Shown here in pieces: positions 8,834 through 45,667 of a stretch of DNA of 64,000 bases. The translations under genes and the position numbers were made by a program. Every line of letters starts with the position of its first letter. Position 1 is the first letter of the stretch. The stretch lies in NCBI GenBank assembly GCA_035457005.1, contig DATICB010000011.1, positions 4,098 through 68,097 on the forward strand, read 5' to 3'. This stretch comes from Patescibacteria group bacterium (GTDB lineage Bacteria > Patescibacteriota > Microgenomatia > Levybacterales > UBA12049). A model generated the notes under the pieces. It had not been told where the DNA came from. It searched no databases and worked only from the letters and a program-made list of their open reading frames with translations.

Positions 8834-9295
8834 ATGTTTCGCAAAAAAGCTGAGAGTTTAAGAAATCTTCCAAGAAGTATTCGTGAAAGAAATAGATTAG
8901 GTATAAGTGTTGGTTTTTCGGTAGTTTCCCTTCTTGTTCCTCCTGTTGGTCCTGGCATTGCAGGCGGAATTGGCGTATTCAACAGCGGATATGAGCTCAA
9001 TGATGTGCGAAGAGGTAAACCACGAGCAAGTATTGTTAGAACAGGGGTCTATGCAGCTCTTGCAGCATCTGAATTTTATCTGCAGTTTCAAGGCAACCAA
9101 GTTTATTCATGGGAAAACGATATTTTGAATCATTTCGGACACCATATGCCAGGCTTCATGGACTATGTCGCAAGATATGTTCCAGGAGGCGGTATAGGAC
9201 TTATAACGGGACTAGGCACAAATACAACAAATTGGGAGCTTATTAGAGCCTGGAGACAAAGACGAAGTAATTTAAGAGAAGCTAGACTTCGGTAA
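8834..9295 (+). CDS. Hypothetical membrane-associated protein (GC-richer)
   Basis: 153-aa ORF, one hydrophobic segment, no recognisable family. Confidence 0.4.
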   Translation: MFRKKAESLRNLPRSIRERNRLGISVGFSVVSLLVPPVGPGIAGGIGVFNSGYELNDVRRGKPRASIVRTGVYAALAASEFYLQFQGNQVYSWENDILNHFGHHMPGFMDYVARYVPGGGIGLITGLGTNTTNWELIRAWRQRRSNLREARLR

Positions 9296-9311: not shown

Positions 9312-9575
9312 TTAGACAAATTGCGGATCCCGACGTGGCGACAAAGGCTGCGTGCTACCTGCGCCTGGCCGCAGATCACCTGTTTCATAATCTGGAAAAG
9401 GGTGCGCATAGCGACTTGAATGTGGAATCGGAGAAAAAAACCCTCCTTTGCCCTCATCCAATATTGGACCTCGGAGTCCTAACAAAGGCCCGCTTGGCCT
9501 TGGGTAACTTGAGTATTGATCTCCTTCTGATTTTCCCATAGTGGCTACTATACTAAAAAGAAGAAATTTTGTCAA
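9312..9575 (-). CDS. Small R/P/G-rich low-complexity protein (member of a GC-rich small-ORF set); start uncertain (may be the internal Met)
   Basis: GC-rich 260-nt island; the minus ORF encodes ...PRPSGPLLGLRGP...DLRPGAGSTQPLSPRRDPQ, similar in composition to other small ORFs in the window. Confidence 0.3.
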   Translation of the reverse strand: MTKFLLFSIVATMGKSEGDQYSSYPRPSGPLLGLRGPILDEGKGGFFSPIPHSSRYAHPFPDYETGDLRPGAGSTQPLSPRRDPQFV

Positions 9576-9641
9576 AATGTGAGCCGGCAGGGATTCGAAC
9601 CCTGAACCTAAGGATTAAGAGTCCTTTGCTCTACCGTTGAG
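9570..9641 (-). tRNA. tRNA-Lys (anticodon CTT)
   Basis: Cloverleaf parsed by hand: acceptor gggtcgg/ccggctc, D-arm gctc..gagc, anticodon loop cuCUUaa, T-arm caggg-ttcgaat-ccctg. Confidence 0.8.
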
Positions 9642-9765
9642 CTACCGACCCAGGCACACAAAAGTATAGCAAATTTCCCAATGCTTTGCAGGCTGAAAAA
9701 GATCTCCAAACATATTGCTGACAACTCCAACTCTTGCATTATTCTAGTCATTTCTCTATACTACA

Positions 9766-13735: not shown

Positions 13736-14563
13736 ATGGTTGATATTATTAAGGCCAATGGCGAAAAGCAGGCATTTTCCGAAGAAAAACTTCGTCACTC
13801 AATTCACCGAGCAGGAATCCCTAAAGATTTAGAAGAGAAAGTTGTTGCGCATATTCACACCAAACTCCACGAAGGCATGCACACAGCAGATATTTACAAA
13901 CACATTGTTGAATTTTTGGACACTGCCAATGCGTCGCATCAGCGAGCAAAATATTCACTCAAACAAGCAATTATGCAGCTGGGGCCAACAGGATATCCTT
14001 TTGAAAAATTTGTTGCCAGAATTTTAGATAGCGAAGGATTTAGCACAACAACAGATGTCATCGTAAAAGGGAGGTGCGTGAGTCACGAGGTAGATGTTGT
14101 TGCAACAAAAGGCAACGAAAAAGTTATGGTAGAGGCAAAATTTCACAACAGCACTGGCATTACTACAGATCTCCACGTTTCTTTATATACAAGAGCGAGA
14201 TTTGAAGACGTACAGGACTCGGAAAAATTTACCAAAGCAATGCTTGTTACTAATACCAAAATCACAACCGACGCGCTTACCTACGCGCAGTGTGTTGGTA
14301 CTGATGTGCTTGGCTGGTCGTATCCAGACAATGCCAGTCTTCGCGATTTGGTAGAAAAATACCATTTGCACCCCATAACCTCGCTTACCCAGCTTTCGCA
14401 AATGCAAAAACAGCAACTCCTTGAGCAGGAAATTGTGCTGTGTCAGGATTTGTCGACTCACCCCGAAGCACTTACCCAGCTTAATTTGCCCAAAGACAAG
14501 CAGGAAAGTGTCTTGTTAGAGGCCAAATCGCTCTGTAACACCTTGCAAGAAAAAGAAAATTAA
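13736..14563 (+). CDS. ATP-cone domain fused to an Mrr-like restriction endonuclease catalytic domain
   Basis: N-terminal VDIIKANGEKQAFSEEKLRHSIHRAG (ATP-cone). Central GYPFEKFVARILDSEGF...HEVDVVATKGNEKVMVEAKFH (Mrr_cat-like D-x-K core). Confidence 0.55.
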   Translation: MVDIIKANGEKQAFSEEKLRHSIHRAGIPKDLEEKVVAHIHTKLHEGMHTADIYKHIVEFLDTANASHQRAKYSLKQAIMQLGPTGYPFEKFVARILDSEGFSTTTDVIVKGRCVSHEVDVVATKGNEKVMVEAKFHNSTGITTDLHVSLYTRARFEDVQDSEKFTKAMLVTNTKITTDALTYAQCVGTDVLGWSYPDNASLRDLVEKYHLHPITSLTQLSQMQKQQLLEQEIVLCQDLSTHPEALTQLNLPKDKQESVLLEAKSLCNTLQEKEN

Positions 14564-14784
14564 TGTATACTATGGATAATATGACAGTTGGAAAAGAAGA
14601 ACCACAAGGAAAAGACAGAACACCAGGTACAGGCAATCGAGAGGTAAATGGGCGGCGAGGAGAGAAACAAAACCAAGAGCCTGGATTTGGAGGTCTTGAG
14701 TGGACAGAACCACGTCAAATCCAAAGAGGATCAAGTACTCCAACCACTCCAAAACCTGCAAAACAAACAGGAACCAGAGGTTAA
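14563..14784 (+). CDS. Small G/P/R-rich low-complexity protein
   Basis: GC-rich ORF with no hydrophobic core; part of a run of three. Confidence 0.3.
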   Translation: MYTMDNMTVGKEEPQGKDRTPGTGNREVNGRRGEKQNQEPGFGGLEWTEPRQIQRGSSTPTTPKPAKQTGTRG

Positions 14785-14824
14785 TTTAGCCTTATTTTAG
14801 CTCAGCAAAAGACAAATTTCCCCC

Positions 14825-15010
14825 TTGCAAAAAAATAAAATAGAGTATATAGTACTTCATATGAGATTTGGTAAAAGACAACCTACAGATAGTGGTTTAC
14901 CTAGAGGATTTGGGGATGTTCCAGAAAGACCAGGTGGAGTTGTACGACCTGGTGATATTAATGAAAGACCAGGTGGATGGCGCGGAAGACCCAATGGCCG
15001 CTTATTTTAA
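14825..15010 (+). CDS. Small G/P/R-rich low-complexity protein
   Basis: ERPGGVVRPGDINERPGGWRGRPNGR repeats. Confidence 0.3.
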   Translation: MQKNKIEYIVLHMRFGKRQPTDSGLPRGFGDVPERPGGVVRPGDINERPGGWRGRPNGRLF

Positions 15011-15044
15011 GTTTTGTTAATTTGTATACGTTTTTATTAAAAAC

Positions 15045-15215
15045 ATGTCGAGACGACAGGTAAAGGATCAGCCAGGAGTAACAAAAGAAGGTGTTAAGCA
15101 ACATGAAACCCAACCATGGGGCATAAAAGACCACGGCGAAAGGCCAACTGGACACCTTGCTGTACCACAACAAGGAACAAAAGTACCACCAACCAAAAGA
15201 TTAGAATCTCTTTAA
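15045..15215 (+). CDS. Small basic low-complexity protein (56 aa, below the ORF-track cutoff)
   Basis: ATG at 15045, in-frame TAA at 15213. Q/P/K/G-rich, GC-rich like its neighbours. Confidence 0.25.
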   Translation: MSRRQVKDQPGVTKEGVKQHETQPWGIKDHGERPTGHLAVPQQGTKVPPTKRLESL

Positions 15216-15231: not shown

Positions 15232-16467
15232 CTAGTACAATTTCCCCAATTCTTTCCGCTCCCATCTATCAGCTAAAAAGCCATTCGGCACGGTTGTTAG
15301 CTTGTCTGAGTAGAGCAAGAATCCATTGCGAATCGTGTGATCGCCAAAAACAGTATTTATATTGTCCACCACTTTTTGTAATTTTTCCTCCTTTTCTGTT
15401 GCAAAAAGTGACCGTGTCAGAAAATTCTCATCCTGCAAAAATCCCGCCCACACCGACACCTGACGAATATAGCTAGCTTGCGTGACTGAGCGCAAAAGTC
15501 CTGCTTTTTGCAAGATATCAAACATGTCTTTACCCGAGTTAACATAAAAATCTGTTGTTTTATGTCCACCAAATGACTCATCACCTCGTAGCCACACACC
15601 AATGCTGCGCGATTTTTTCCCTAACTTTCTCAACTTTATCCCAACTTCTTCCAAAAGCTCAAAAACTGTTTGCAAAATAACGCGCTTATTTGTCTCGTTT
15701 TTCGGCAAGCAGTAATTTCTGCCAACAGATTTTGTCTGAATAGCACTGCCAAAATGCACAACAGGTGTTTCGTCTTTGGCAAAAGCAACATTATGCAAAA
15801 AAGTTGCTTCGTGCGGACCAAATTCCGCAACTAATGCTCCTATGGGAATAGAACGAAGATCGAGCAAATTACGTATCCCAAGCATGTGCAAGCGTTTTTC
15901 TATGCGAAATCCTATACCACACACATCGGTAAGTGACGCCTTTTTGTACACATCGTCAACATTGTCCGGCGTAATTTTGGTAACGCCATTTGGCTTGTCC
16001 ATACCGCTCGCCATTTTGGCAAGCATTTTATTGTAACTCACACCAACCGAGACCGTAATAATTTCGCCCATTTCACGCTTTATGTGCTCTTTTAAACGAG
16101 CAATCAGACTATCTGTACCGCCAAATAAGTGTGCTGTTGCGCTAATGTCCAGGAAAAGCTCGTCAATGGAGAAAACCTCTAAATAAGGCGAGTAGAGCCG
16201 GCAAATTTGAATAAATTTTTTAGAAATCTCAAAATATTTTACAAAATGCGCAGGTGTTGTCACAATCTGCGGACAGACCTTTTTCGCCTGCCAATAACTG
16301 CTGCCACCTTTGACTCCCATTTTTTTTGCTTCTTTGCTGGCTGCAATAATTGCTGTTCGAGAATGTGCTGCAGTGACACCAACTGGCTTGCCTCGCAACT
16401 CTGGATGATCCTGCTGCTCAACACTCGCAAAAAAAGAGTCAAAATCTATATGTAAAATGGTCTTCAT
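15232..16467 (-). CDS. dinB: DNA polymerase IV (Y-family, DinB)
   Basis: ILHIDFDSFFASVEQQDHPELRGKPVGV N-terminus plus full-length Y-family polymerase similarity. Confidence 0.85.
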   Translation of the reverse strand: MKTILHIDFDSFFASVEQQDHPELRGKPVGVTAAHSRTAIIAASKEAKKMGVKGGSSYWQAKKVCPQIVTTPAHFVKYFEISKKFIQICRLYSPYLEVFSIDELFLDISATAHLFGGTDSLIARLKEHIKREMGEIITVSVGVSYNKMLAKMASGMDKPNGVTKITPDNVDDVYKKASLTDVCGIGFRIEKRLHMLGIRNLLDLRSIPIGALVAEFGPHEATFLHNVAFAKDETPVVHFGSAIQTKSVGRNYCLPKNETNKRVILQTVFELLEEVGIKLRKLGKKSRSIGVWLRGDESFGGHKTTDFYVNSGKDMFDILQKAGLLRSVTQASYIRQVSVWAGFLQDENFLTRSLFATEKEEKLQKVVDNINTVFGDHTIRNGFLLYSDKLTTVPNGFLADRWERKELGKLY

Positions 16468-16593
16468 ATTTTTTGAACATAGGGGAACTTTGTCATCCCG
16501 GACTTGATCCGGGATCCAGTTCCTTTAAAACCACGTCTTGTTTCTGGATTCTTGCCTTTGCAGGAATAACAAATCCATATAGGCGAACAAGAT

Positions 16594-16609
16594 TAGTACG
16601 ATCGTACTA
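16594..16609. promoter_or_regulatory. Perfect 16-nt palindrome TAGTACGATCGTACTA upstream of dinB; candidate LexA/SOS-type operator (GTAC-N4-GTAC)
   Basis: Read directly from the sequence; about 125 nt upstream of the dinB start codon. Confidence 0.35.
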
Positions 16610-16654
16610 CTTTTCCTTCATGACGGGCAAGAAGACAAAGTAGATCAAAATACA

Positions 16655-17551
16655 CTATATTCCGTAGCTGGAAAGCGGGGCATTGCCAATATGAATTCTT
16701 GGCAGTGAGAAAATATTTCCTTCACATTGGAATCGTCCGGGAAGTGTGGAAAAGGCAGCAACATACCCATTGTCTTTAAGCAGTTGCCACACCCAGCTGA
16801 CTGTTTGGCCAGATCCATATGGATATACCAAAATTGGCGATGTAGTTCCTAAGAATTGTCTAAGCTGATTTTGCGCTGTTGTTATTTCCTGGATATCTTT
16901 TTCTTTCGACCCTTGCGCCATAGGGAAATGAGACCATGTATGATTGTAGGCAACCATTGTCCTGCTTCCAACCATTTCCTTTAACTGATCCCACGAAAAG
17001 TACGAATTAGTACCGGCAACAACACCCAAAAGGCCAGTTGGTACCATAAGATTGCCAAGCAGGTGATATTTTTGCAATGTCGGATACGCATAGAGATAAT
17101 TATCTAAGTAGCCATCATCCATGGTGACGACTACCGATTTGCTCGGCACTTGTCCATGAGACAAAATAGCGTCAACCAATTGCTGAGCAGAGATAGTTGT
17201 GTAGCCATTTCCAGCCAAATATGCCATTTGCTTATCAAACTCACCGCTATCAACGCTCAGGGATGTCTGGCCTTTGGCTACGGCATCTGCTTGCGGCTGA
17301 ATGTGGTGGTAGAGTAAAACAGGCACCTGAAGACAATACCCACCAGCAGGTAACGTGGCTGTATCGGTAGCCGTTTTGTACGCTTCTTCGGAGAAAATGC
17401 TTGCCGCAGCCTGCATACAGGCCTTATTGCCTGTGCATAAATTGGTTGCCTCATCTGCAACAGAAACCGTGCCTAATTTATTGCTGAGAAAAAGCGCGCA
17501 GGCGACAATGACCGCTGAAAAAAGGCCAAAAAGTGCCACAGACAGCTTCAT
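16655..17551 (-). CDS. Polysaccharide deacetylase (NodB-homology domain) with N-terminal signal/anchor
   Basis: VPVLLYHHI...VVVTMDDGYLDNYLYAYP...YNHTWSH motifs. Confidence 0.7.
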   Translation of the reverse strand: MKLSVALFGLFSAVIVACALFLSNKLGTVSVADEATNLCTGNKACMQAAASIFSEEAYKTATDTATLPAGGYCLQVPVLLYHHIQPQADAVAKGQTSLSVDSGEFDKQMAYLAGNGYTTISAQQLVDAILSHGQVPSKSVVVTMDDGYLDNYLYAYPTLQKYHLLGNLMVPTGLLGVVAGTNSYFSWDQLKEMVGSRTMVAYNHTWSHFPMAQGSKEKDIQEITTAQNQLRQFLGTTSPILVYPYGSGQTVSWVWQLLKDNGYVAAFSTLPGRFQCEGNIFSLPRIHIGNAPLSSYGI

Positions 17552-17643: not shown

Positions 17644-19461
17644 ATGGAAATTTTAGCAGAGAAAATTAGAAATGTAGCGGTTATTGCCCACGTTGACCAT
17701 GGCAAGACAACCCTGGTTGATTTTTTGCTCAAGCAGTCTCACACATTCAGAGAAAACGAGCAGGAAATGCAGCAAACAACCATTTTAGACAGTAATCCGC
17801 TTGAAAGAGAGCGTGGCATTACTATTCTGGCAAAAAATACCGGCATTACCTACAAAGACTACAAGATTAATATTGTTGATACTCCAGGCCATGCAGATTT
17901 TTCTGGAGAAGTTGAGCGTACTTTGAATATGGCAGATGGCGCACTGCTTATTATCGATGCGCAAGAAGGCCCTATGCCTCAGACCAAATTTGTCTTAAAA
18001 AAAGCACTCGAGTTGGGACTCAAGATTATTGTTGTCATTAATAAAATTGACAAGCCATTGGCAAATATTCCCCATACCCTTAATAAAACCCACGACCTTT
18101 TCCTCGAGCTCGCAACCCACGAAGACCAATTAGAATTTCCTGTTTTGTATGCAATTGGTCGGGAAGGCAAAGCAGGCAAAACAGAAGAAGACGCACGAAA
18201 TGCGACCAATCTTGAGCCACTTTTTGAAGAAATCATTTCCTTTATTCCATCTCCAAAAGTGAGTGAAGGGCCTCTGCAAATTTTAGTAACATCTTTGGAT
18301 TTTGATTCTCATCGTGGCAAACATGTGATTGGCCGGATTACGCGAGGTGAAGCGGTGAAGGGCATGAGTGTTGTTGTTACCAAAGCAGATGGCGTCCACA
18401 AGCAGGGAAGAATTGAAACTATGTCCACAACATTAGGACTGAAAAAAGTCGAACAAGACAAAGTCGGAGCAGGGGAAATTGTAGACATTACCGGCATAGA
18501 TACAGCAGATATCGGCGATACAGTCACTGACCCCAAACAAATTGACGAACTCCCTAGAATTCATGTTGAGGAGCCCACCATTAAAATCGCGCTTGGCCCA
18601 AATACATCTCCTTTTGCAGGAAGAGAAGGCAAATTTACCACATCGAGGCAACTCCTTGAGAGATTGCAAAAAGAATTGGAAACAAATGTCGCGCTTAAAT
18701 TAGACATTACCGGTGAGCGTTACCTTTTGTCTGGACGAGGCGAATTGCATTTATCTGTCCTTATTGAGACCTTGCGACGTGAGGGGTATGAATTCGAGGT
18801 TGGTAAGCCGCAAGTCATTACTAAAAAAATAGATGGTGTAGAAATGGAACCTGTTGAAGATGTGATTATTGACGTCCCAGATGAATACGTTGGGTCAATT
18901 ACTCAGGAAATGGGACAACGAAAAGGCAATATGACCAATATGGAGCCAGATGGTAAGGGAAATACGCGTTTGCAATACACGATTGCATCCAAAAACCTTT
19001 TAGGTATTCGAAACGATATTTTAACCCAAACAAAAGGTACAGCAGTCATCAACAGCATGTTTAATGGCTACCAACAGCTGACACCAACCTTGGAAAAATT
19101 CCGCAACGGAGCACTTATTGCATCCGAAGCAGGCGACATCTTGGCCTATGGACTGGGCAATGCGCAGGAACGGGGCATTACGTTTTTTGAACCGGCAACG
19201 CCTGTGTATGAAGGCATGATAATCGGCGTTAACTCCAGAAAAGATGATATTGAAGTCAACGTTACCAAAGAAAAAAAACAAACCAACATGCGATCAAAAG
19301 GGGAAGGAGTCAAATTGGTTTTAACGCCCCCTACTGTTATGAGTCTTGAGCAATATTTGGATTTTTTGGAAGACGACGAATTACTTGAAGTAACACCAAA
19401 GAATTTACGACCTCGGAAAAAATATTTATCCAAACTTGACCGCGTCAGAGCCGGCAGATAA
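17644..19461 (+). CDS. typA: Translational GTPase TypA/BipA
   Basis: IRNVAVIAHVDHGKTTLVD, DTPGHADF, NKIDK G-motifs and full-length BipA similarity. Confidence 0.9.
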   Translation: MEILAEKIRNVAVIAHVDHGKTTLVDFLLKQSHTFRENEQEMQQTTILDSNPLERERGITILAKNTGITYKDYKINIVDTPGHADFSGEVERTLNMADGALLIIDAQEGPMPQTKFVLKKALELGLKIIVVINKIDKPLANIPHTLNKTHDLFLELATHEDQLEFPVLYAIGREGKAGKTEEDARNATNLEPLFEEIISFIPSPKVSEGPLQILVTSLDFDSHRGKHVIGRITRGEAVKGMSVVVTKADGVHKQGRIETMSTTLGLKKVEQDKVGAGEIVDITGIDTADIGDTVTDPKQIDELPRIHVEEPTIKIALGPNTSPFAGREGKFTTSRQLLERLQKELETNVALKLDITGERYLLSGRGELHLSVLIETLRREGYEFEVGKPQVITKKIDGVEMEPVEDVIIDVPDEYVGSITQEMGQRKGNMTNMEPDGKGNTRLQYTIASKNLLGIRNDILTQTKGTAVINSMFNGYQQLTPTLEKFRNGALIASEAGDILAYGLGNAQERGITFFEPATPVYEGMIIGVNSRKDDIEVNVTKEKKQTNMRSKGEGVKLVLTPPTVMSLEQYLDFLEDDELLEVTPKNLRPRKKYLSKLDRVRAGR

Positions 19462-19547: not shown

Positions 19548-19799
19548 ATGTATTTTGTATACGTTCTACAAAGTATGAAGGATGATAATTTTTATACAGG
19601 TTTTTCAGACAATTTGAAAAGAAGATTGAGCAAGCATAATACAGGTCTTGTCACTGCTACAAAACATAGACTTCCATTAAAACTTATTTACTACGAATTT
19701 TGTCTCAACAAAACAGATGCACTCCATAGGGAGATCTACTTAAAAACATCTTGGGGTAAAAAATACATTAAAAACAGATTATCAAATTATCTCATGTAG
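19548..19799 (+). CDS. GIY-YIG nuclease-family mini-protein
   Basis: YFVYVLQS...FYTGFSDNLKRRLSKHN GIY-YIG core; 83 aa. Confidence 0.75.
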   Translation: MYFVYVLQSMKDDNFYTGFSDNLKRRLSKHNTGLVTATKHRLPLKLIYYEFCLNKTDALHREIYLKTSWGKKYIKNRLSNYLM

Positions 19800-20180: not shown

Positions 20181-20843
20181 ATGGATCGCAAACAGTTTTA
20201 CAAACTCCTCCTTCTTCGCTCGGTTGGTAACTTTTTGGTCTTATTTGCACTGTTTGGTATTTTTGCAACAATTGGTCCCGCACTTTTTTACGAAGTCAGA
20301 TTTCAGATCGATAATCTGACCGGAACACAATATGTCGTTGCACAGACGGATGCCCCTAACCAATTGAAAACTATTCAAAACAATCAGAAAGTGTTAATTC
20401 CGCCTGATACCTACTTCAGTATTGTTATTCCAAAAATCGGCGCGAGTTCCCGGGTAATTATTAATGTTGACCCAACCAATGAAAAAGAATATTTGGCAGC
20501 ACTCCAAAAAGGAGTTGCTCATGCAAAAGGTACTGTTTTCCCAGGAATGAATGGGATTAGCTTTTATTTTTCCCACTCAACAGACAGCTTTTGGGATGTC
20601 GGACGATATAACGCAATCTTTTATTTACTTAAAGACATGCAAATAGGTGATGACATTTATATTTACTTTAAAAATTACCGCTACAATTATAAAGTCACCC
20701 AAACAGAAATCTTGGATCCATCGGACGTGTCACTTTTGGTTAATGCTCAAAAAGTACAAGACCAAGAAGTAGTGCTGCAAACATGCTGGCCTCCTGGCAC
20801 AACATGGAAACGGTTTATCGTGATTGCCAAACCAGTAAAATAA
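20181..20843 (+). CDS. Sortase-family transpeptidase (paralog 1)
   Basis: N-terminal TM anchor; His motif GVAHAKGT; catalytic Cys motif VVLQTCWP. Confidence 0.7.
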   Translation: MDRKQFYKLLLLRSVGNFLVLFALFGIFATIGPALFYEVRFQIDNLTGTQYVVAQTDAPNQLKTIQNNQKVLIPPDTYFSIVIPKIGASSRVIINVDPTNEKEYLAALQKGVAHAKGTVFPGMNGISFYFSHSTDSFWDVGRYNAIFYLLKDMQIGDDIYIYFKNYRYNYKVTQTEILDPSDVSLLVNAQKVQDQEVVLQTCWPPGTTWKRFIVIAKPVK

Positions 20844-20858: not shown

Positions 20859-21122
20859 ATGTTTCGAAGAAAAGAAGACAAGCTAGCAGAGAAAACGGTG
20901 GGAGTTATAGTTGTTGCAAAACACGAAGATGACGCACGAGAACAAGTAAGACGCCGTGGTGCACAACCAGACTCTGCTATTTATGGAGGGAGAGTGCAAT
21001 CTGCACAGCATAGAAATGGCTGGCGAGGAAGATTTGGGTTCCCATTAAGGGGATCAACTCCGCATCGTCCTCCTGATGGCGGTGGGGGTGGGGGCAACGG
21101 TGGAATACCAATGGCTGCATAA
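20859..21122 (+). CDS. Small G/R/P-rich low-complexity protein
   Basis: GC-rich ORF ending GGGGGGNGG. Confidence 0.3.
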   Translation: MFRRKEDKLAEKTVGVIVVAKHEDDAREQVRRRGAQPDSAIYGGRVQSAQHRNGWRGRFGFPLRGSTPHRPPDGGGGGGNGGIPMAA

Positions 21123-21163
21123 AATGTATTGCTGATATTTTGCTAATTTGTTATTATCCATAA

Positions 21164-21466
21164 ATGGGAATTTTTCAACGAGGCCCTTCACGACAAGAAA
21201 TTGCCAGACAAAGACTTGAAGAAGAAGTAAATTTAGGGGACGCTACCGGTTTTCATTTTTACGAACGAGACGCAAATCTTCCACCAGATCGAAGACGACG
21301 TGCTTTTGCAAGACTTATCGAAAGAATGTCTGAAAATCCATTATTGCCGCCCGAAACACGCTCGCAGATGCGACAAAATGCAGAAATCATTAGAAGCATA
21401 CAAGAACAACCTTCTCCTTCACTTCCTCAACGATTTTTCCAACGAATAAGGTCTCTGAGAGAATAA
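21164..21466 (+). CDS. Small R/E-rich hypothetical protein
   Basis: 100-aa ORF. Confidence 0.3.
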   Translation: MGIFQRGPSRQEIARQRLEEEVNLGDATGFHFYERDANLPPDRRRRAFARLIERMSENPLLPPETRSQMRQNAEIIRSIQEQPSPSLPQRFFQRIRSLRE

Positions 21467-21508
21467 AAGCCTAGCTTTTGCAACCTAATCCTGCTATACT
21501 CACACACT

Positions 21509-21718
21509 ATGCCAAGAGAAAAAAGACACGGAAGAGGAGGCGAACAGTACCAAGGTAACCATAGTCCTTCCAGAAAATCTTGGCGGCGGCGATTGCAGGA
21601 GAGGCTTGGACTCACTCCCGATGACATAGCAAGTTTAGCGGAAAGATTTCATAGCGGTCCTCACGCAGGAACTCATGGTGGTCCCAATGACGGAGGAAAT
21701 AACACCAATCTTAATTAG
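21509..21718 (+). CDS. Small basic G/R/H-rich low-complexity protein
   Basis: GC-rich ORF. Confidence 0.3.
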   Translation: MPREKRHGRGGEQYQGNHSPSRKSWRRRLQERLGLTPDDIASLAERFHSGPHAGTHGGPNDGGNNTNLN

Positions 21719-22116: not shown

Positions 22117-22740
22117 ATGAATACGACATGGACTACTATACCAACGCAGGAAATAATCGACCAAACAGCCACAAATCTTACCAAAAATGGGTTTAATACC
22201 ATTATTGTTGCCTCGAAAGAAGACGCCAAAGCAAAAGTTTTGGAACTTTTACCGGAAGGCGCAGAAGTTATGACAATGTCTTCTGTCACTATAGATAGCA
22301 TTGGACTTTTTGCAGCCATTAATTCATCAGGGAAGTACAACGCAGTAAAGGCCAAGCTTATGACAATGGACAGGGCAACGCAAGGGCGGGAAATGCAAAA
22401 ATTAGGCGCGGCACCTGACTATGCAGTTGGCAGCGTTAATGCAGTAACTCAGGACGGCAAAGTACTGATTGCCAGTAACACTGGAAGCCAGATACCTGCC
22501 TACGCATATGCAGCATCTCATGTTATTTGGGTCGTTGGTGCACAAAAAATTGTCAAAGATGTAGCAGAGGGGGAAACAAGAATTAACGACTATATTTTGC
22601 CACTTGAGTCAAAAAGATTAGAAAAAGTTTTTCAATTGCCAGATTATAAGAGCAATGTGAGCAAACTTCTTATTATGAGCAGGGAGATTAATCCCAAACG
22701 AATGACACTTATTTTAGTGCAAGAACCTCTGGGATTTTAA
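22117..22740 (+). CDS. LUD-domain (LutC/YkgG-like, DUF162) protein
   Basis: Overall similarity to the lactate-utilisation LutC-like fold; lies divergent to the HxlR regulator. Confidence 0.5.
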   Translation: MNTTWTTIPTQEIIDQTATNLTKNGFNTIIVASKEDAKAKVLELLPEGAEVMTMSSVTIDSIGLFAAINSSGKYNAVKAKLMTMDRATQGREMQKLGAAPDYAVGSVNAVTQDGKVLIASNTGSQIPAYAYAASHVIWVVGAQKIVKDVAEGETRINDYILPLESKRLEKVFQLPDYKSNVSKLLIMSREINPKRMTLILVQEPLGF

Positions 22741-24187: not shown

Positions 24188-24367
24188 TCAAATGCAAATA
24201 ATGCAGCAAATTAAAAACGTGAGCAGATTACCGCAGCATATTCCAATCCAGCACACTACATGCCCAGAAGGACTACCGTTTTTAAAGCTCATTCGCATCA
24301 TGCAGACAGGTTGCGAATTTTTAAATTTTTCCTTGCATAAAAATCATAAACGATATATACTCGCCAT

Positions 24368-24574
24368 GTGCGAATCAGAAGAAGAGACAAGCAACCAGAG
24401 TTAGATCTCGGCCCACTTATGACCAGAGAAGAGCTTGAATGGTTGGGAAGAGCAAATGCAGGCACACCTATTCCAGATGGTTTTGCTGAGGATCCAAGAA
24501 GAACATGGCAACCAGGACAAACAGATCATACAGGCGACCCAAATATACATCGTTGGATTAGGAATCTCCGTTAA
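24368..24574 (+). CDS. Small basic R/P/D-rich protein
   Basis: GC-rich ORF directly upstream of tRNA-His. Confidence 0.3.
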   Translation: MRIRRRDKQPELDLGPLMTREELEWLGRANAGTPIPDGFAEDPRRTWQPGQTDHTGDPNIHRWIRNLR

Positions 24575-24623
24575 TTATAGTAATTTTACCTCTGAAATAG
24601 GAAAGACATTTTCGTGGTTAGTG

Positions 24624-24697
24624 GGTGGCCAACGGGAGTCGAACCCGCAACCGCTAGATCCACAATCTAGTGCTCTAACCATTGAGCTATGGCCACC
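24624..24697 (-). tRNA. tRNA-His (anticodon GTG) with encoded G-1
   Basis: G-1 plus acceptor gtggcca/tggccac, anticodon loop uuGUGga, T-arm gcggg-ttcgact-cccgt. Confidence 0.85.
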
Positions 24698-24802
24698 ATA
24701 GATACAGAAATAAACCTGCAGGCCTATTATAGCATTAAGAGAGCACTGCCTCAACGAGCACACTTGCAAATTTTCCGAAAGTATCCTATAATCGGGCTAC
24801 TT

Positions 24803-25033
24803 ATGGGAGCAACAGGTGGTTTTTCTGACGGGAGAGGAAGTTTTCCAGACCGTGGACATCAAGAAAGCACCCAGGGAATAACGGAATGGCATCCACAAAG
24901 AGATCCGCTTGCACCTAAGCGCAAAGGTTGCAGATTCTGGCCTAGAAGAAAACCAAGAAACCCACAAGAACCTCAAGGACCAAGAGATTATACAGAACTC
25001 TATCGAGAGCATGGTCTAATTCCTCGTGGCTAG
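24803..25033 (+). CDS. Small basic G/R/P-rich protein
   Basis: GC-rich ORF downstream of tRNA-His (internal Met start). Confidence 0.3.
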   Translation: MGATGGFSDGRGSFPDRGHQESTQGITEWHPQRDPLAPKRKGCRFWPRRKPRNPQEPQGPRDYTELYREHGLIPRG

Positions 25034-25680
25034 CTTTTTGGCTTCGCAATTACTACAAACCGTTGTAAATCCGCAAATCCATCACACGTATACAGAATAA
25101 GTGTTTCGCCTTTTTGGGACAACAAAACACTTACCTGGTCAGGCGACACATCAAATGTCTTTTCCACAACATACACATACTGTTTATTTCCCCCAGCAGT
25201 TAGAGTAATCTGTGACCCTGTAGAAAGCCACCTAATGGGGCCAAATCGATCATTCGTATTATGCCCGTATAGTATAATAGGCCCATCCTCCCCAGGGCGC
25301 GCAGACGTATTTAAATGCGATATGCCATTCTCTGCAATGCCCCACACGCCATTACCAATCGCTTCTTCAACAATTGGCAGTTCCATCTGGACACTTGGAA
25401 TACTTACCCATGTCGGCGCAGGGAGTGTTTTGGCAACAACAGGCACTTTTGGTGTAAAAAAAGCAAGCTGAACACCCTCATTAATATAAAAAAACGTGGG
25501 AATAATGACAAGAAGTAGTCCAGAAATAAGAAGAAGTTTGGTCATAAGAGACGTCTTATAGACAAAATTGTGAAATAAAGAGGGAAGTCTTCTCCCTTGG
25601 TATGTGGGTTTTGTGACTTGGGATTTGAGACTTGCGGTCTTGGACTTACTTACTTTCTTTGGCATATTTCTTAGCACCAA
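25030..25680 (-). CDS. Sortase-family transpeptidase (paralog 2)
   Basis: TM anchor; PIILYGHN His motif; LILYTCDG Cys motif. Confidence 0.7.
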   Translation of the reverse strand: MVLRNMPKKVSKSKTASLKSQVTKPTYQGRRLPSLFHNFVYKTSLMTKLLLISGLLLVIIPTFFYINEGVQLAFFTPKVPVVAKTLPAPTWVSIPSVQMELPIVEEAIGNGVWGIAENGISHLNTSARPGEDGPIILYGHNTNDRFGPIRWLSTGSQITLTAGGNKQYVYVVEKTFDVSPDQVSVLLSQKGETLILYTCDGFADLQRFVVIAKPKS

Positions 25681-26774: not shown

Positions 26775-29700
26775 GTGGGAAACGAATTTATCAAAAATTT
26801 ATTAACAGTTATTTCTTCTTTTTCGATTCTCATCCAGTCGTTGTCTCCAATCGTGGCAATTGTCCCAACTATAGCACCTGCTACAGCATATGCCCAAACA
26901 GTCACGCCAACAGATACTGTTACTCCAACCCCAACTGATACGGTTACACCAACAGATACGATAGCACCAACACCAGATACTGCAACGCCTACACCAGACA
27001 ATACAACCCCAACTGATACGGTTACACCAACAGATACGATAGCACCAACACCATCCGATACGCCAACCGATGCAGTAACACCAACAGACAATCCAACTAC
27101 ATCACCAAGCAATACTACTAATAACCCATCTCAAGCACCACCGGCAACAGATACTCCAACAGTAACCCCATCTGTTACCCCAGATAATACAACAACATCA
27201 GTAAATGGAACTCTTTCAACAACAATCTTGGACAATGTAGCAGCACCAAGCCTTGATTTGTCAACAGCCCCAACATCCAGCGCAACATTAACAACCAATA
27301 AAGCAGATTATGCACCAACAGACACAGCAGTTATTTCTGGAAATAGTTTTGCAGCAAATACAACCTATGTACTTACTATTAGTAGTACAGATAATCCAAC
27401 AACCAGTACAACAGTAAATATTACTACAGATGCAAATGGTTCATTTACCTATGCGTATCAATTGGATGGCAACTACAGACCAAATTATTCTGTTGTATTA
27501 AAACTTAGTGGTACAACAGTTGCCACAACAACATTTACAGATAGTCCTGCAGTAACAACAACGCAAAACAACGTTGCATGTATGGCAGATCAACCAGGCC
27601 AGAGTGGACTTAACTGTACAGCAAATGATATTTCAGTTGCATCTGTATCTTCTATTACTATTAATGGTCATGGATGTAGATTTCCAGGAGACACAGTTAG
27701 CTTTACTGCGAATTGGAGCATTCAATCGACAGCAAATAATAGATATAACGTAGGACTTTGGTTTAACACAACAGGTGGAACCAGTGCTTTGCATGGAACC
27801 TGTTCTGCAACTTCAATTCCAAGTAGTCCAGCTCCGTTCTTTGATAGTGGTGCTGGAAGTGTCTGCGGAGGCTTAGACAAAAATCCTGGGGCAGGAACAC
27901 TTTCAATAACTCAAACAGCAACATGCAACCCAGATAGCAGTGGATTCTTAAAGCTCCCTTACTGTGCTTCATGGCAACAAAACAGCGGAGCATGTAGCGT
28001 GCCAACAGATACTGTTCCAGGATCTCCTTCAAAGTGTAAGTGTCAGGATGGGTTCACCATTCCAATTACTGTCCCACCCTCAGTCGAAGTTGTTAAATCA
28101 CTTTCTCCAGCAAACGACAGTGGCTTATTTAATCTTCAAGTCAATGCATCATCAAGTGCAACAAATGTTGGTAATGGCGGTACAACTGGAAAAGTAGGTA
28201 TAACAACAGGCGCTGGTAATACTTTTGGGGAAACAGCAGGAACTGCTACATCTCTAAGTAACTACACATCAACAGCTTCCTGTGTATTAAGAGGAACAGC
28301 AACGCCAGTTGCAATAACAGGAACTGGTCCTACGTGGAACATTACAAATGTTACTAATGGTCAAGATATTGTCTGTACAATTACTAATACAAGAAGCACT
28401 GGGACAATTGAGCTAAAGAAGGTCTGGTCTGGAACTGGTGGTCAAACAACTCTTAATATTGGTACATCAGCAGGGGGCACACAAGTGGCATCTGTTCAAA
28501 CGGGCGCGAATGGAGCAACTCCCCTTACTACTGGAACAAAAACAGTTAACGCTGGCACTTACTTTCTCTCAGAAACAGGCGGACTTTCTAATTATACAGC
28601 TGCTCTTGCCTGTACAGATAATGGTAATCCAGCAACGGTAACAAATAGTTCGGTTTCTGTTACAGCAGGACATACAGTTATTTGTACGTTTACCAACACG
28701 CTTCAACAAGCCCATCTTACCTTGGTAAAAACACTCACAAAGGATAACGGCGGAAATGCAGCAATTACAGACTGGACCTTAACCGCAACAGGCAATACCA
28801 ATATTTCTGGAACATCAGGAAATGCCGCAGTGACTAACGCAGGAGTACTTCCGGGCACTTATGCTCTTGGAGAATCTGGCGGCCCAAGTGGATACACAGC
28901 AGGAACATACAGTTGTGTAAAAAATAACGGAGCACCAGTAAGCAGCAATTCTATTACCCTTGCGAATGGAGACAGTGCAACTTGTACGGTTAACAACAAT
29001 GACAATCCACCATCTCTTACACTTGTCAAACAAGTTAGTAATACACATGGCGGCACAGCTCAAACAACAGACTGGACACTTACTGCAACAGGCCCAACAA
29101 CATTATCCGGTGCAGGTGGAGCAACAAGTGGCGCAACCTTTAAAGCAGGGACATATACCCTTTCTGAATCAACAGGTTCTTCGGGGTATACAGCAGGAGG
29201 TTGGAATTGCACGAATAATGTTTCTGTATCAAACAGTCAGATAACGCTTGGTCTTGGACAAACAACAACCTGTACAATTATTAATTCCGACGTTGCTCCA
29301 ACACTGAAGTTGGTTAAACACGTAACCAATGACAATGGAGGTACGAAGGCGCCACATGATTGGACACTTGTCGCAACAGGAAGTGGTGGTTTTAGTGATA
29401 CAGGTGATTCAACAACATTTCATGCAGTAACAGCAGGAGTCTCTTACTCACTCTCTGAATCTGCTATTTCGGGGTATACAGCAGGAAACTGGTCATGCGA
29501 TGGCGGCAATCAAAGCACAAATACTATTACACTTGGTGTTGGGCAAAATGTTACCTGTTCGGTTACTAATGACGACCAAGCACCATCGTTAACATTAGTC
29601 AAACATGTTAGTGGTGGAACAGCGCTGGCAACTGCATGGACACTTACGGCAACAGGAAGCAGTCAGTCTCCAACAAATCTTTCGGGAACAACACCAGTCG

Positions 29701-32672: not shown

Positions 32673-33642
32673 ATTATTACTAACAGTAGTATCACTGATG
32701 CTTCTTTTTGCAGGGGTATCTTTTGCTGCATCAAGCTTGTCAGTACGGCTCGAGCAACCAAAATCACCAACGAATTTGAATGATTTTACTATTACTTTTG
32801 TTGCCCTGGACACACAAAATAATCCAGTAACAGTAACGTGTTACAAAAAAGGTCCCTCAGATGGAGGGTATGCACAATTTGACACAATAAAAAATCTTTC
32901 TAATGGCGGAGGATCAGACAATTGCCACGCGACATCATCCCTTGTTAATCAGGACGGAACATATGCATTTTACGTAACAGCAAGTAATGGATCAACAACC
33001 GTTACGAGTAGCATAGTCACTATTGATGTGAATACATCAGGTCCTGGTACACCAACGAATTACAGCAAAACCCAATCAGACAGTTGCCATTTTACCATTT
33101 CTTTCCGAACAGCAGATGACAGTGGCAAAACAAGCAAAGTCGAAATCTACCGATCTTCAACAACAACACTGACTGCAGATAATAATTCACGCATCACATC
33201 CATATCTGTTGGCTCCAACACCGACAGGACGTACTCTGACACTATTCCATCTTGCGGCACAACATATTTCTATGCACTCAGAGCTTTTGACAGCGCAGGG
33301 AATGCATCAGGACTTGTTGGAGATGGCGAGCTGACAGCAACCAGCACAACAACAACGAATACAACTTCCGGAACAACAGGTAATGCAGCAGGCGTTACTG
33401 GCACAGGTGGCGGTGCAATCCCTGTCACAACAAGTGACGTAACTCCAGGTGAAGGGAAGACAGCCAGTGGTACACCAGCACCAACAGAGCAACAAGTATT
33501 AGGAGCAACCAAGGCCCCTATACAATCCCCCTTATCATCGGTTGGGGACTTCTTCCATTCATATATCAACTGGCTACTCCTTATTGGTCTTGCTGTTGTT
33601 GTTGGCATTGCAATTTGGTATTTCCGACAGAAAAATAGCTAA
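32656..33642 (+). CDS. Secreted fibronectin-III/Ig-like surface protein with a C-terminal anchor; start at MEKISKLLL (overlaps the previous stop by 17 nt)
   Basis: Signal peptide; TYFYALRAFDSAGNAS FnIII-like motif; EQQVLGATK...TM...YFRQKNS tail. Confidence 0.6.
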   Translation: MEKISKLLLTVVSLMLLFAGVSFAASSLSVRLEQPKSPTNLNDFTITFVALDTQNNPVTVTCYKKGPSDGGYAQFDTIKNLSNGGGSDNCHATSSLVNQDGTYAFYVTASNGSTTVTSSIVTIDVNTSGPGTPTNYSKTQSDSCHFTISFRTADDSGKTSKVEIYRSSTTTLTADNNSRITSISVGSNTDRTYSDTIPSCGTTYFYALRAFDSAGNASGLVGDGELTATSTTTTNTTSGTTGNAAGVTGTGGGAIPVTTSDVTPGEGKTASGTPAPTEQQVLGATKAPIQSPLSSVGDFFHSYINWLLLIGLAVVVGIAIWYFRQKNS

Positions 33643-33650: not shown

Positions 33651-34271
33651 ATGAGGCATTTCTCAACATATTTTCTTGTTATTGGGGCGTTGTGTATTTT
33701 TGCGGGCTTTTTGATTCTTGCATTTACGTACTATCAATTAATAGGAGACGAACTTTCATATTTTCTCTTTCATCCCAATTCACAAGCAAATGTTGTTTCC
33801 AAATTTAATCATCCGAGGCAACAAGACATTGTCCCTGCTGACGAACAATTCGGCATTGTTATTCCAAAAATTCGGGCGAATAACAAGGTGATTGCCAATG
33901 TTGACCCATTTGATGAAATGACTTACCAATGGGCACTCACTAAGGGCGTTGCTCACGCAAAAGGATCATCCCTTCCTTACGAAAAGGGAACTGTTTTTCT
34001 TTTTTCTCATTCTTCAGTAAATTTCTATGAAGCTGTCAAATATAACTCTATTTTTTATCTTTTGGATAAATTGAAAAAAGGAGACACAGTTTACCTTTTC
34101 TATAAAGGTACTAAATACACATATTTAGTGAGCGGGAAAACAATAGTCGCACCAACAAATGTGTCGTATTTATTTGAGAAAACAGGAAACAGGCTTATTC
34201 TTATGACATGCTGGCCTCCTGGAACTACTTTCAGGAGGCTGCTTGTTGAAGCAGTGTTGAAAAATAAGTAA
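33651..34271 (+). CDS. Sortase-family transpeptidase (paralog 3)
   Basis: GVAHAKGS His motif; RLILMTCWPPGTT Cys motif; about 60% identical to paralog 1. Confidence 0.7.
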   Translation: MRHFSTYFLVIGALCIFAGFLILAFTYYQLIGDELSYFLFHPNSQANVVSKFNHPRQQDIVPADEQFGIVIPKIRANNKVIANVDPFDEMTYQWALTKGVAHAKGSSLPYEKGTVFLFSHSSVNFYEAVKYNSIFYLLDKLKKGDTVYLFYKGTKYTYLVSGKTIVAPTNVSYLFEKTGNRLILMTCWPPGTTFRRLLVEAVLKNK

Positions 34272-34307: not shown

Positions 34308-34628
34308 TCATTCACTCAGGGTAAACTTCTCATCTCTCATGAGAGCTTCAACAAACTCAGTGCAAGTATTAATTCCAAGTATACCATCTATTAACATTTG
34401 TTTCTTTGCGTGACTCCAGCCTTTTAATTGTTGTTCTCTCTTTGCTGCTTGGTACTTATTAACGTACTTTTCTGCATACTTAAATCTAAGATCAGAAAAT
34501 TTTTTTGTGAACAAAGATTTTTTATTTTTGTGTTTTTTAAACCGTGGAATAATATCATCTGTTATCCCAACATAAAACATTTTCTGATCGCAAAGAAGAA
34601 TGTAAGTAAACCAAGCAGAACGACTCAT
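34308..34628 (-). CDS. GIY-YIG nuclease-family mini-protein
   Basis: WFTYILLCDQKMFYVGITDDIIPRFKKH GIY-YIG core. Confidence 0.7.
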   Translation of the reverse strand: MSRSAWFTYILLCDQKMFYVGITDDIIPRFKKHKNKKSLFTKKFSDLRFKYAEKYVNKYQAAKREQQLKGWSHAKKQMLIDGILGINTCTEFVEALMRDEKFTLSE

Positions 34629-34659
34629 TGTAATTGCTTGCACTGAGCTTGCCGAAGTG

Positions 34660-34733
34660 CGCTCCCGGAGGGACTCGAACCCCCGACCACATCGTTAGAA
34701 CCGATATGCTCTATCCAGCTGAGCTACGGGAGC
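34660..34733 (-). tRNA. tRNA-Arg (anticodon TCT)
   Basis: Acceptor gctcccg/cgggagc, anticodon loop guUCUaa, T-arm ggggg-ttcgagt-ccctc. Confidence 0.8.
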
Positions 34734-34737
34734 AATG

Positions 34738-34809
34738 AGCGGGTTATGGGATTCGAACCCACGACACTCTGCTTGGAAAGCAGATGCTCTACCACTGAGC
34801 TAAACCCGC
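34738..34809 (-). tRNA. tRNA-Gly (anticodon TCC)
   Basis: Acceptor gcgggtt/aacccgc, anticodon loop uuUCCaa, discriminator U. Confidence 0.85.
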
Positions 34810-34894
34810 ACTTCGTCGTTTCACTCCTCAGTGTAAACACGTTTGACGCTAAGTATAAGTGCTTGCTACTTCCTTGTCAAAACAAGCGAATGTG

Positions 34895-34968
34895 TCGGGG
34901 ACAGAAGACTCGAACTTCCGACCTCACGGTCCCAAACCGCGCGCTCTAGCCAACTGAGCTAGTCCCCG
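34895..34968 (-). tRNA. tRNA-Pro (anticodon TGG)
   Basis: Acceptor cggggac/gtccccg, anticodon loop uuUGGga, discriminator A. Confidence 0.85.
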
Positions 34969-35243
34969 TTCTGCAAGGCAGAACTTATCTCTTTACCATA
35001 TTCTGCCAAAATTTTTCTTAATTTATATCCAACTCCTGATTTCAGGAATTTTTCTCTTTTGTCTGTACAAGTTTTACAATACAGTTGTTCAAAATACACA
35101 ATCTTCCAAGGTCTATACGCCTTTGTAAATTTTGATAGGCCACTATTGTGCTCCTTTAGTCTAACCTGAACACTTTTTATTGTTTGTCCAACGTACGTCT
35201 TATTTTTCTTTGTTAAACTTTGCAGGATGTATACTTTGTACAC
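34959..35243 (-). CDS. GIY-YIG nuclease-family mini-protein (its stop overlaps the 5' end of tRNA-Pro by 10 nt)
   Basis: YKVYILQSLTKKNKTYVGQTIKSVQVRLKEHN GIY-YIG core. Confidence 0.7.
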   Translation of the reverse strand: MYKVYILQSLTKKNKTYVGQTIKSVQVRLKEHNSGLSKFTKAYRPWKIVYFEQLYCKTCTDKREKFLKSGVGYKLRKILAEYGKEISSALQNGD

Positions 35244-35298
35244 ATCTATAGTTTAGCAAATCTTCCTCCTGAGAAAATTCTCCTCTGGAGAAGTGCCG

Positions 35299-35675: not shown

Positions 35676-35879
35676 ATGACACGAAGAAATCGAAAAAGTG
35701 AAAGATTGCCGATTATCTCGCAAGAGACAGCGCACACAGTGGCGAAATTTGCATTAAATGTTGTTGAAGCAAGAATTGCACAAGTCGTGTTGAGAAGACT
35801 AGCAACTGCACGGCCCTCTGGTAGACAACATGGCCTTCCAGACCAGATTATTGTTGGTCCCCAACCAGAACATTCCTAA
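35676..35879 (+). CDS. Small basic hypothetical protein
   Basis: 67-aa GC-rich ORF. Confidence 0.25.
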   Translation: MTRRNRKSERLPIISQETAHTVAKFALNVVEARIAQVVLRRLATARPSGRQHGLPDQIIVGPQPEHS

Positions 35880-45314: not shown

Positions 45315-45382
45315 ACGTATAGTATACCAAAAACGTGCCTGAATTATTGATTTTGAGCATAACAAAGATAAATGAACAGGCA

Positions 45383-45667
45383 ATGAACGAACCGAAACAG
45401 ACACACGAGATATGTATTGCCACAAAAAGAAAACCCTTGTACTATTTCGAAAATATGACCTTTCATCCATGTAGCGGAATGTCTCAAGCTGAAGAGTATA
45501 TTGACGTAGTCCATGATCCAACAGTAAACAGGCAAAGAGCACTAGAAAAAATTAGACGTCGCTTGGATGGAGAGTGGGAAAGAGTACGGTTTGCACCCGC
45601 ATGTAACGAAAGGGGAGAACGATTGAAAGGAAGACTTGCAATAATAGGCACTCGACGTCAGAGATGA
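45383..45667 (+). CDS. Small basic hypothetical protein
   Basis: GC-rich ORF with R-rich C-terminus. Confidence 0.25.
   Translation: MNEPKQTHEICIATKRKPLYYFENMTFHPCSGMSQAEEYIDVVHDPTVNRQRALEKIRRRLDGEWERVRFAPACNERGERLKGRLAIIGTRRQR

Follow-up and report, generated by a model that had tools for sequence, protein, structure and literature searches.

Are the small, GC-richer open reading frames (ORFs) that lie between the housekeeping genes of a Levybacterales genome protein-coding genes and, if so, of what kind? The question is raised by a 64,000-nucleotide stretch of contig DATICB010000011.1 (assembly GCA_035457005.1, a Patescibacteria group bacterium), which we refer to as the window. A preliminary description listed eleven such ORFs between positions 9312 and 45667, and offered them either as a lineage-specific family of small proteins, basic and nucleic-acid-binding or secreted as effectors, or as non-coding GC islands. 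All eleven frames are open at the positions given there, and the peptides quoted from them are present; we name each ORF by its first coordinate (o9312 to o45383, Table 1). Our sequence analysis indicates that the ORFs are almost certainly protein-coding rather than GC islands, and that no fewer than nine or ten of them are most likely genuine genes. The reading that we favor, and regard as probable, is that they are real, taxonomically restricted small genes, organized as autonomous leaderless units, that encode basic, mostly disordered cytoplasmic proteins.

Codon composition and codon usage

The GC content of the ORFs ranges from 0.40 to 0.50 (mean ∼0.45), compared with 0.383 for the window and a mean of 0.38 for its long genes (standard deviation 0.042, maximum 0.457, n = 46); five of the eleven ORFs lie above every long gene. 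The higher GC content noted earlier thus holds for the set as a whole, but 14825–15010 (0.40) and 21164–21466 (0.42) are unremarkable in this respect. Pooled GC contents at the first, second, and third codon positions (GC1/GC2/GC3) are 0.61/0.53/0.27 in the ORFs, where A occupies 45% of third positions, versus 0.47/0.38/0.30 in the long genes. Because the extra GC is found at codon positions 1 and 2 only, it reflects an Arg/Gly/Pro-rich amino-acid content, and the “GC islands” are the nucleotide shadow of amino-acid composition.

We compared each ORF with composition-matched shuffles of itself that were kept open in frame. The difference between GC at the first two positions and at the third (GC12−GC3), which is 0.16–0.50 for single ORFs, is significant at p≤0.003 in ten of the eleven and at p = 0.022 in o45383. 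Codon usage under the same conditioned null gives z = 2.8–4.2 in nine ORFs, compared with 4.1 (standard deviation 1.0) for chunks of real genes. A frame-specific Markov score ranges from −1.3 to +5.2 bits per 100 nt across the ORFs, while chunks of real genes average 6.0 and 143 spurious off-frame ORFs average −9.4, with a 99th percentile of 0.2. PGAP and other gene callers chose the same starts, and nine of the eleven ORFs correspond exactly to GenBank “hypothetical protein” entries (HSD98538–HSD98566, VLB73_02440–02615).

Differences among close strains

Strain data came from seven short Logan contigs of four samples, which are automatic assemblies 95–99.6% identical to the window; five of them (L163–L167, 98.4–99.6% identical) were found through protein cluster-member look-ups. 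Samples SRR25158368, SRR29417475, SRR29417464, and SRR22388078 contain this species. Pooled over o9312, o20859, o21164, o21509, and o24803, the differences amount to nine synonymous and four non-synonymous changes and no indels (binomial p = 6e-4 versus neutrality). The three ORFs of the 20859–21718 cluster account for seven synonymous and three non-synonymous changes (ratio of non-synonymous to synonymous polymorphism, pN/pS, 0.13), and o21164 alone, compared with three strain contigs, for six and two (p = 0.003 versus neutrality). The protein of o20859 is identical on L163, and L165, which holds only the last 26 nt of the gene, has one synonymous difference; o9312 differs in L166 by two synonymous changes and one K>R replacement, with no indel, and o24803 is identical in L167. 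Flanking conserved genes on the same strain contigs have similar ratios of synonymous to non-synonymous differences.

The preliminary description had proposed tests for purifying selection and for tolerated frameshifts. Run on the strain contigs, the former came out in favor of selection, and these counts indicate that the ORFs are under purifying selection within the species. Conservation of the reading frame holds among close strains, where no frameshift was seen and the sole indel is a 3-nt in-frame deletion in o14563; it does not extend to the nearest other species, which is without these ORFs and carries other small genes instead.

A hypervariable patch at 14586–14607 stands out in o14563, with 8–9 differences plus the 3-nt deletion in ∼25 nt relative to contigs L001 and L002. 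The adjacent Mrr/ATP-cone gene (828 nt) has only 4–6 differences, all synonymous, and the next 100 nt of L001 are identical to the window. The patch could be a recombination tract or could reflect diversifying selection on the N-terminus.

Promoter matches and arrangement of the units

At six of the eleven starts, a match to TTGnnn-N16–18-TAnnnT ends 4–11 nt upstream, with the start codon 6–10 nt past the match, an arrangement found at a background of 1.7% of the ATG triplets in the window (p∼1e-8). Three further ORFs have a match with a relaxed −35 or −10 element. A TAnnnT hexamer resembling a −10 box also ends 4–11 nt before the start in 28 of 47 long genes, and a check for ribosome-binding sites found a Shine-Dalgarno-like motif at −18 to −5 in none of the 47. 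The lack of Shine-Dalgarno motifs makes leaderless expression likely, and most translation initiation in this genome seems to be leaderless or independent of Shine-Dalgarno motifs. The promoters of o14563 and o14825 share a 32-nt stretch that is 72% identical, which is the sole significant DNA similarity between units.

The promoter matches also bear on where the genes begin. The TTG triplets at 9575 and 14825, previously taken as starts, are −35 boxes of promoter matches, and the ATG at 14563 shares bases with the stop codon of the upstream gene and precedes the −10 box. The likely coding sequences are 9312–9539(−), 14581 (or 14572)–14784, and 14861–15010.

The units occupy tail-to-tail gaps, in the orientation of the gene upstream, with spacers of 34–76 nt between them that hold the next promoter. 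The stops of o9312, o15045, o21509, o24803, o35676, and o45383 fall within 0–20 nt of the stop of a convergent gene, and intrinsic terminators, looked for in the runs, were not detected. The reported grouping in runs and beside tRNA genes is confirmed: triple runs occupy 14563–15215 and 20859–21718, and three ORFs in all adjoin tRNA-Lys or tRNA-His, with tRNA-Lys (9579–9651) abutting 9312–9575 and tRNA-His (24623–24696) lying between 24368–24574 and 24803–25033. We propose that most of the ORFs are small autonomous transcription units with a sigma-70-type promoter match, in which an ATG or GTG 6–10 nt past the −10 box would give a leaderless or near-leaderless mRNA. They would follow one another head-to-tail, filling the gaps where housekeeping genes face each other tail-to-tail, the last ending 0–20 nt from the convergent stop.

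A count of small, hydrophilic, periodic intergenic ORFs made without regard to promoters yields nine for the window, none of them outside 9.3–25.0 kb; o35676 and o45383, both on the plus strand, are compositionally less typical than the others. The window itself has a GC step, from ∼0.41 in 1–37 kb to ∼0.35 in 37–64 kb, and all typical small hydrophilic ORFs are in its GC-richer part.

Searches for homologues and the sister species

A HMMER scan of 1.84 billion representative proteins, viral and metagenomic ones included, returned nine matches to a concatenated query of ten ORFs (o45383 was left out), all of them self-matches at 100% identity. No match was obtained for o24803, which was part of the query, and the sequences of 24803–25033 and 45383–45667 are absent from the protein collection. 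The ORFs belong to 90% identity clusters of just one or two members each. No Pfam, PHROGs, PADLOC, or NCBIfam model matched at or near its cut-off, and PHROGs, PADLOC, and NCBIfam gave no indication that the ORFs derive from phages, defence systems, or a named family. Concatenated queries in word-index protein searches came back empty; these negatives are uninformative, because a control with flanking conserved proteins missed even DinB homologues. The ORFs fit no described sequence family, and what had been called lineage-specific proves narrower, the ORFs being species-specific orphans.

The TypA gene (17644–19461) served as an anchor for relatives. Its best match, CAYOZJ010000008.1 (L003, hereafter the sister species), is 86% identical, and the gene order around TypA is kept. 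The next matches are at 67–71% and include Candidatus Levybacteria/Levyibacteriota genomes (L005, L006) and metagenome contigs; no relative at intermediate distance was found with this anchor in genomes and metagenomes, nor any close relative in GTDB genomes with the Mrr/ATP-cone protein as anchor.

The same gaps are filled differently in the sister species. Between the Mrr/ATP-cone and dinB genes it has one 93-aa hydrophilic gene where the window has three, and between the sortase and HxlR-type genes a 133-aa gene on the opposite strand plus a 79-aa gene. Beside tRNA-His it carries an 83-aa gene on the strand opposite to o24368, and the o24803 segment is absent, leaving tRNA-His 55 nt from the sortase gene. 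Conversely, the LUD-domain and thiamine-pyrophosphokinase-like (TPK) genes overlap by 4 nt in the window (22737–22740) and are separated in the sister species by ∼1 kb with two small hydrophilic genes at 16124–16660 (97 aa on the plus strand, 82 aa on the minus strand). Altogether the sister species has 5–6 small hydrophilic genes (five by the promoter-blind count). At least two of them start with an ATG 7–9 nt past a near-consensus promoter match (TTGACA-17-TATAAT, TTGCAC-17-TATAAT), have a GC3 far below GC1 and GC2, and form singleton clusters. Smith-Waterman comparison with shuffles gave no sign of orthology between the small genes of the two species (best z = 3.06 among 66 pairs).

Among 23 further TypA neighborhoods, from more distant Patescibacteria and other bacteria, 20 hold no such small genes. 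This distribution indicates that the style of gene is a trait of a narrow clade, while the individual genes are species-specific. They could have arisen de novo, diverged beyond recognition, or been acquired, a recent foreign origin being disfavored by their host-like GC3 and codon usage. No alignable non-genic orthologous sequence was found, as the syntenic gaps of the sister species do not align and hold other genes. The likely history would be one of rapid turnover, by de novo birth or divergence beyond recognition, in a lineage whose genes need no more than a promoter and a 5′ AUG to be expressed. A bolder version, which we advance tentatively and consider more doubtful than probable, is that the tail-to-tail gaps are nurseries of fast de novo gene turnover, which two sister species have filled independently with unrelated, selected, disordered basic proteins.

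Predicted properties of the products

The predicted products are 49–100 aa long, rich in Gly, Arg, Pro, Asp, His, Glu, and Gln, and poor in hydrophobic residues (0.12–0.37, versus 0.41 in long proteins). Their grand average of hydropathy (GRAVY) is −0.46 to −1.67, compared with a long-protein mean of −0.06, their R+P+G+D+H fraction is 0.31–0.61, compared with 0.20, and ten of the eleven lie on the disordered side of a charge-hydropathy plot. These values bear out the earlier characterization as hydrophilic, R/P/G-rich, and disordered, and the isoelectric points (pI 8.5–11.7 in ten of eleven) bear out that of basic proteins. The suggestion of secreted effectors is not sustained: the products show neither a hydrophobic N-terminus nor a transmembrane segment, the 19-residue Kyte-Doolittle maximum being at most 1.24 and in most cases below 0.3.

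Strong positive charge combined with RG-rich disorder suggests that the proteins bind to RNA, DNA, or ribosomes. As judged from composition, the products are probably soluble, cytoplasmic, polycationic disordered proteins, either binders of RNA, DNA, or ribosomes or hydrophilin-like protectants. An AlphaFold2 single-sequence model of o21164, of moderate confidence (mean predicted local distance difference test score, pLDDT, 63.8; 76–79 in helices 41–56 and 63–80), suggests that this protein may be partly helical.

Alternative explanations

Several observations weigh against the reading as selected, leaderless genes. The promoters are consensus matches only, and o15045, o20859, and o45383 are without a good one. 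Codon usage is weaker in o21509 (z = 1.85) and o45383 (z = 1.56). The polymorphism counts are small, at 13–19 sites, and five synonymous sites of o21164 lie inside one 25-nt stretch (21301–21325, which maps to the first predicted helix) and may represent one recombination event. The first ∼nine codons of o14563, compared with L001 and L002, show one synonymous and five non-synonymous differences besides the in-frame deletion, and including this patch brings the pooled neutrality test to p = 0.006. Lack of conservation in the sister species would also be expected of unconstrained sequence. Finally, T makes up only 12–25% of the ORF strand, at which composition the chance of an open frame as long as these is 0.2–6% per frame. 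Chance ORFs on so T-poor a strand are conceivable, which is why four coding tests were needed; the codon-position tests exclude chance.

The last two observations, along with a second forward frame that is partly open in two regions, are what non-coding, GC-richer, T-poor intergenic islands with chance open frames would predict. Such islands would leave unexplained the strong three-base periodicity, with host-like AT-rich third positions, of every ORF, the codon usage that matches the host after conditioning on composition and an open frame, the synonymous bias of the strain differences, the starts at a leaderless position past promoter matches, and the choice of the same starts by PGAP and other gene callers. 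Hence we reject the GC-island proposal of the preliminary description on codon-position composition, codon usage, and synonymous-biased polymorphism, and hold it to be highly improbable. Small regulatory RNAs driven by the same promoters, for instance antisense to the convergent 3′ ends of the dinB, HxlR-type, and sortase genes, with ORFs that are incidental or part of a dual function, would account for the orientation of the runs: each is transcribed towards a convergent gene, and since no intrinsic terminator intervenes, read-through antisense transcription is plausible. No Rfam model matched, however, even at E≤1 (the gathering and E-value modes returned tRNAs and noise only), the three focal units fold no more stably than shuffled sequence (z = −0.35 to −0.98), and coding periodicity and synonymous bias would again be unexplained; we rank this possibility lower still. 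That several ORFs stand in a row on one strand in different frames could also suggest the debris of larger, decayed genes, yet no fragment has a homologue, most ORFs have their own promoter match and start codon, and the second cluster is under apparent purifying selection, so that pseudogene fragments are hardly credible.

A single paralogous family, the other proposal of the preliminary description, would explain the common composition, the basic pI, the RG/RGG-like stretches, and weak in-frame motif echoes of o14563 in o14825 (GFGG/GFGD) and in o15045. All-versus-all blastp and blastn gave nothing significant (best blastp E = 0.018 in an 11-sequence database), DNA Smith-Waterman comparison with shuffles confined the similarity among units to promoters, and the products lack signal peptides; a family of nucleic-acid-binding proteins or secreted effectors is very unlikely. 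A further explanation, that tRNA genes and gene junctions received the units by horizontal transfer as mini-cassettes (moron-like or left over from integrated elements), concerns their origin and is compatible with functional genes. It fits their build as autonomous promoter-plus-gene modules, the differing presence at exact junctions between sister species (o24803 absent from one, the ∼1 kb LUD-TPK insert present in it), the three units that adjoin tRNA genes, and a nearby 19-nt duplicate of a tRNA-Leu 3′ end. Against it stand host-like GC3 and codon usage, housekeeping neighbors, the lack of flanking repeats, integrase, phage genes, or terminators in the runs, and the absence of any homologue among 1.84e9 proteins, viral and metagenomic ones included; we consider acquisition of this kind unlikely.

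Relation to known systems

Leaderless small-protein genes have been described in Mycobacterium and Deinococcus, where transcription starts and translation were measured (PMC4633059, PMC4007540), and models of bacterial leaderless genes are available (PMC3160421, PMC6028130). The units described here resemble them in having a start codon at or a few nt from the predicted transcription start, no Shine-Dalgarno motif, and many short, easily overlooked ORFs. They differ in the host, which belongs to the Patescibacteria (Levybacteria-like), in their head-to-tail runs within tail-to-tail gaps, and in that transcription starts and translation are here deduced from sequence.

Orphan and de novo genes of eukaryotes (yeast) offer a second comparison, since their higher GC content makes the products disordered (PMC5389847; see also PMC12868653). 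Like them, the ORFs are short, without homologues, above the genome average in GC, predicted to be disordered, and confined to one species. Unlike them, they do not have a raised GC3, which ties the GC excess to amino-acid content, and no alignable non-coding ancestor was found, leaving a de novo origin unproven. Hydrophilins, such as LEA-like proteins and E. coli RMF and YciG, are defined by a hydrophilicity index >1.0 and Gly >6% (PMC7448490). Six ORFs (o14563, o14825, o15045, o21509, o24368, and o24803), with GRAVY<−1 and 8.8–22% Gly, fall within both limits and, like hydrophilins, are predicted to be small, soluble, and disordered; o9312, o20859, o21164, o35676, and o45383 fall outside. 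Hydrophilins are a physicochemical class rather than a homologous family, and no sequence similarity of an ORF to a known hydrophilin was found.

Phage morons are autonomous promoter-gene units inserted between conserved genes. The resemblance, one of architecture only, lies in self-contained modules of promoter and small gene that sit between conserved syntenic genes and vary in presence between close relatives; the present units, in contrast, are not in a prophage, have no detected terminators, and are native in third-position composition and codon usage.

Patescibacteria have small genomes that are thought to be streamlined. Yet small genes that are species-specific and have strong promoter matches take up ∼2 kb of the 15.7 kb that runs from 9.3 to 25.0 kb. 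Confirmation of their translation would show that these symbionts actively maintain orphan small proteins, and would make the contrast between sister species, with unrelated genes in the same gaps, a clean natural experiment on gene birth and loss in bacteria. It would also carry a warning for annotation, in that GC-richer “islands” in AT-rich genomes can mark the coding of disordered proteins rather than foreign DNA or RNA genes. Were the nursery idea true, a symbiont genome supposed to be streamlined would provide a rare and tractable example of de novo gene birth still under way in bacteria. The practical effect is modest: GenBank already lists nine of the ORFs as hypothetical proteins, one (24803–25033) was apparently missed, and one (45383–45667) is doubtful.

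Individual units and neighboring genes

Table 1. Small ORFs of the window and their promoter matches, with composition by codon position and codon-usage z where reported.
Feature	Coordinates	Strand	Description	GC1/GC2/GC3	Codon-usage z
o9312	9312..9539	−	75 aa; GenBank HSD98538, VLB73_02440; self-match P0003 with exactly the same start	0.62/0.57/0.35 (p = 0.003)	3.5
Promoter match of o9312	9547..9575	−	TTGACA-17-TATAGT; ATG 7 nt past −10 box
Promoter match of o14563	14543..14571	+	TTGCAA-17-TATACT; overlaps stop codon of upstream Mrr/ATP-cone gene
o14563	14581..14784	+	67 aa from ATG 9 nt past −10 box; PGAP: 14572–14784, 70 aa, HSD98542	0.62/0.59/0.20	4.2
Promoter match of o14825	14825..14853	+	TTGCAA-17-TATAGT; ATG 7 nt past −10 box
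o14825	14861..15010	+	49 aa; HSD98543; 22% Gly	0.62/0.62/0.12	3.3
o15045	15045..15215	+	56 aa; HSD98544; promoter match weak; ends 16 nt before convergent dinB stop	0.65/0.45/0.25	3.0
o20859	20859..21122	+	87 aa; HSD98551; start 15 nt after sortase gene; promoter match weak
Promoter match of o21164	21129..21157	+	TTGCTG-17-TATTAT; ATG 6 nt past −10 box
o21164	21164..21466	+	100 aa; HSD98552; most structured of the set, predicted helices 41–56 and 63–80
o21509	21509..21718	+	69 aa; HSD98553; TATACT −10 box 8 nt upstream, −35 match poor		1.85
Promoter match of o24368	24334..24361	+	−10 box TATACT (24356–24361), 6 nt before GTG
o24368	24368..24574	+	68 aa; HSD98558; convergent with tRNA-His	0.58/0.52/0.28	3.3
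Promoter match of o24803	24764..24792	+	TTGCAA-17-TATAAT; divergent from tRNA-His promoter match 24754–24726(−)
o24803	24803..25033	+	76 aa	0.63/0.59/0.24 (p<0.001)
o35676	35676..35879	+	67 aa; HSD98566; TTGCAA-17-TATAAG 8 nt upstream; GRAVY −0.46
o45383	45383..45667	+	94 aa; weakest candidate; absent from protein collection; no convincing promoter match		1.56 (p = 0.14)

A few details of the units complement Table 1. Directly downstream of tRNA-Lys, o9312 is tail-to-tail with the gene at 8834–9295. The 49-aa o14825 contains an in-frame internal duplication of 39 nt (the ERPGG repeat), which indicates that it grew through this duplication, and o15045 may be co-transcribed with it. At the end of the second run, 3 nt separate o21509 from the stop codon of the convergent HxlR-type gene, and o35676 abuts the stop of a convergent carboxypeptidase gene. 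The −35 box of o24368 can be placed at TTGCAT (24333–24338, 17-nt spacer) or at TGCATA (24334–24339, 16-nt spacer).

Existing annotation appears to have missed 24803–25033: the protein collection contains it neither as a 76-aa nor as a 114-aa form, and the GenBank accessions on either side of the gap are consecutive, so that the numbering leaves no protein between 24368–24574 and the sortase gene. As a gene, 45383–45667 is doubtful. Its apparent overlap with 44646–45542(−) probably arises from an ORF drawn too long, since the response regulator encoded there has a receiver domain that begins at residue 79. That regulator is of the OmpR type, and its true start is probably ∼75 codons downstream of the GTG; the shorter form would leave a gap of ∼370 nt that holds the doubtful ORF.

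Elsewhere in the window, an exact 19-nt copy of the 3′ end of tRNA-Leu(taa) (35438–35456) lies at 35293–35311, 145 nt downstream on the minus strand, within a ∼150-nt stretch of ∼50% GC (35283–35456) in which no Rfam match was found. Possible sources of the copy are an integrated element, which would have left it as an att-type duplication, and a second tRNA that has decayed. Three small stand-alone GIY-YIG proteins are encoded at 19548–19799(+), 34308–34643(−), and 34959–35243(−) (Pfam E = 1e-12 to 1e-14); two of these lie among the tRNA genes of the cluster at 34659–35521. The ORF at 26775–32672 encodes a 1965-aa Thr/Pro/Ser-rich, repetitive, surface-type protein with a hydrophobic C-terminal tail resembling a sorting signal, and 32611–33642 a 343-aa protein of similar style. 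Three sortases or sortase-like proteins, identified by Pfam, GenBank, or sequence, are encoded near these surface-type genes (20181–20843, 25030–25680, and 33651–34271).

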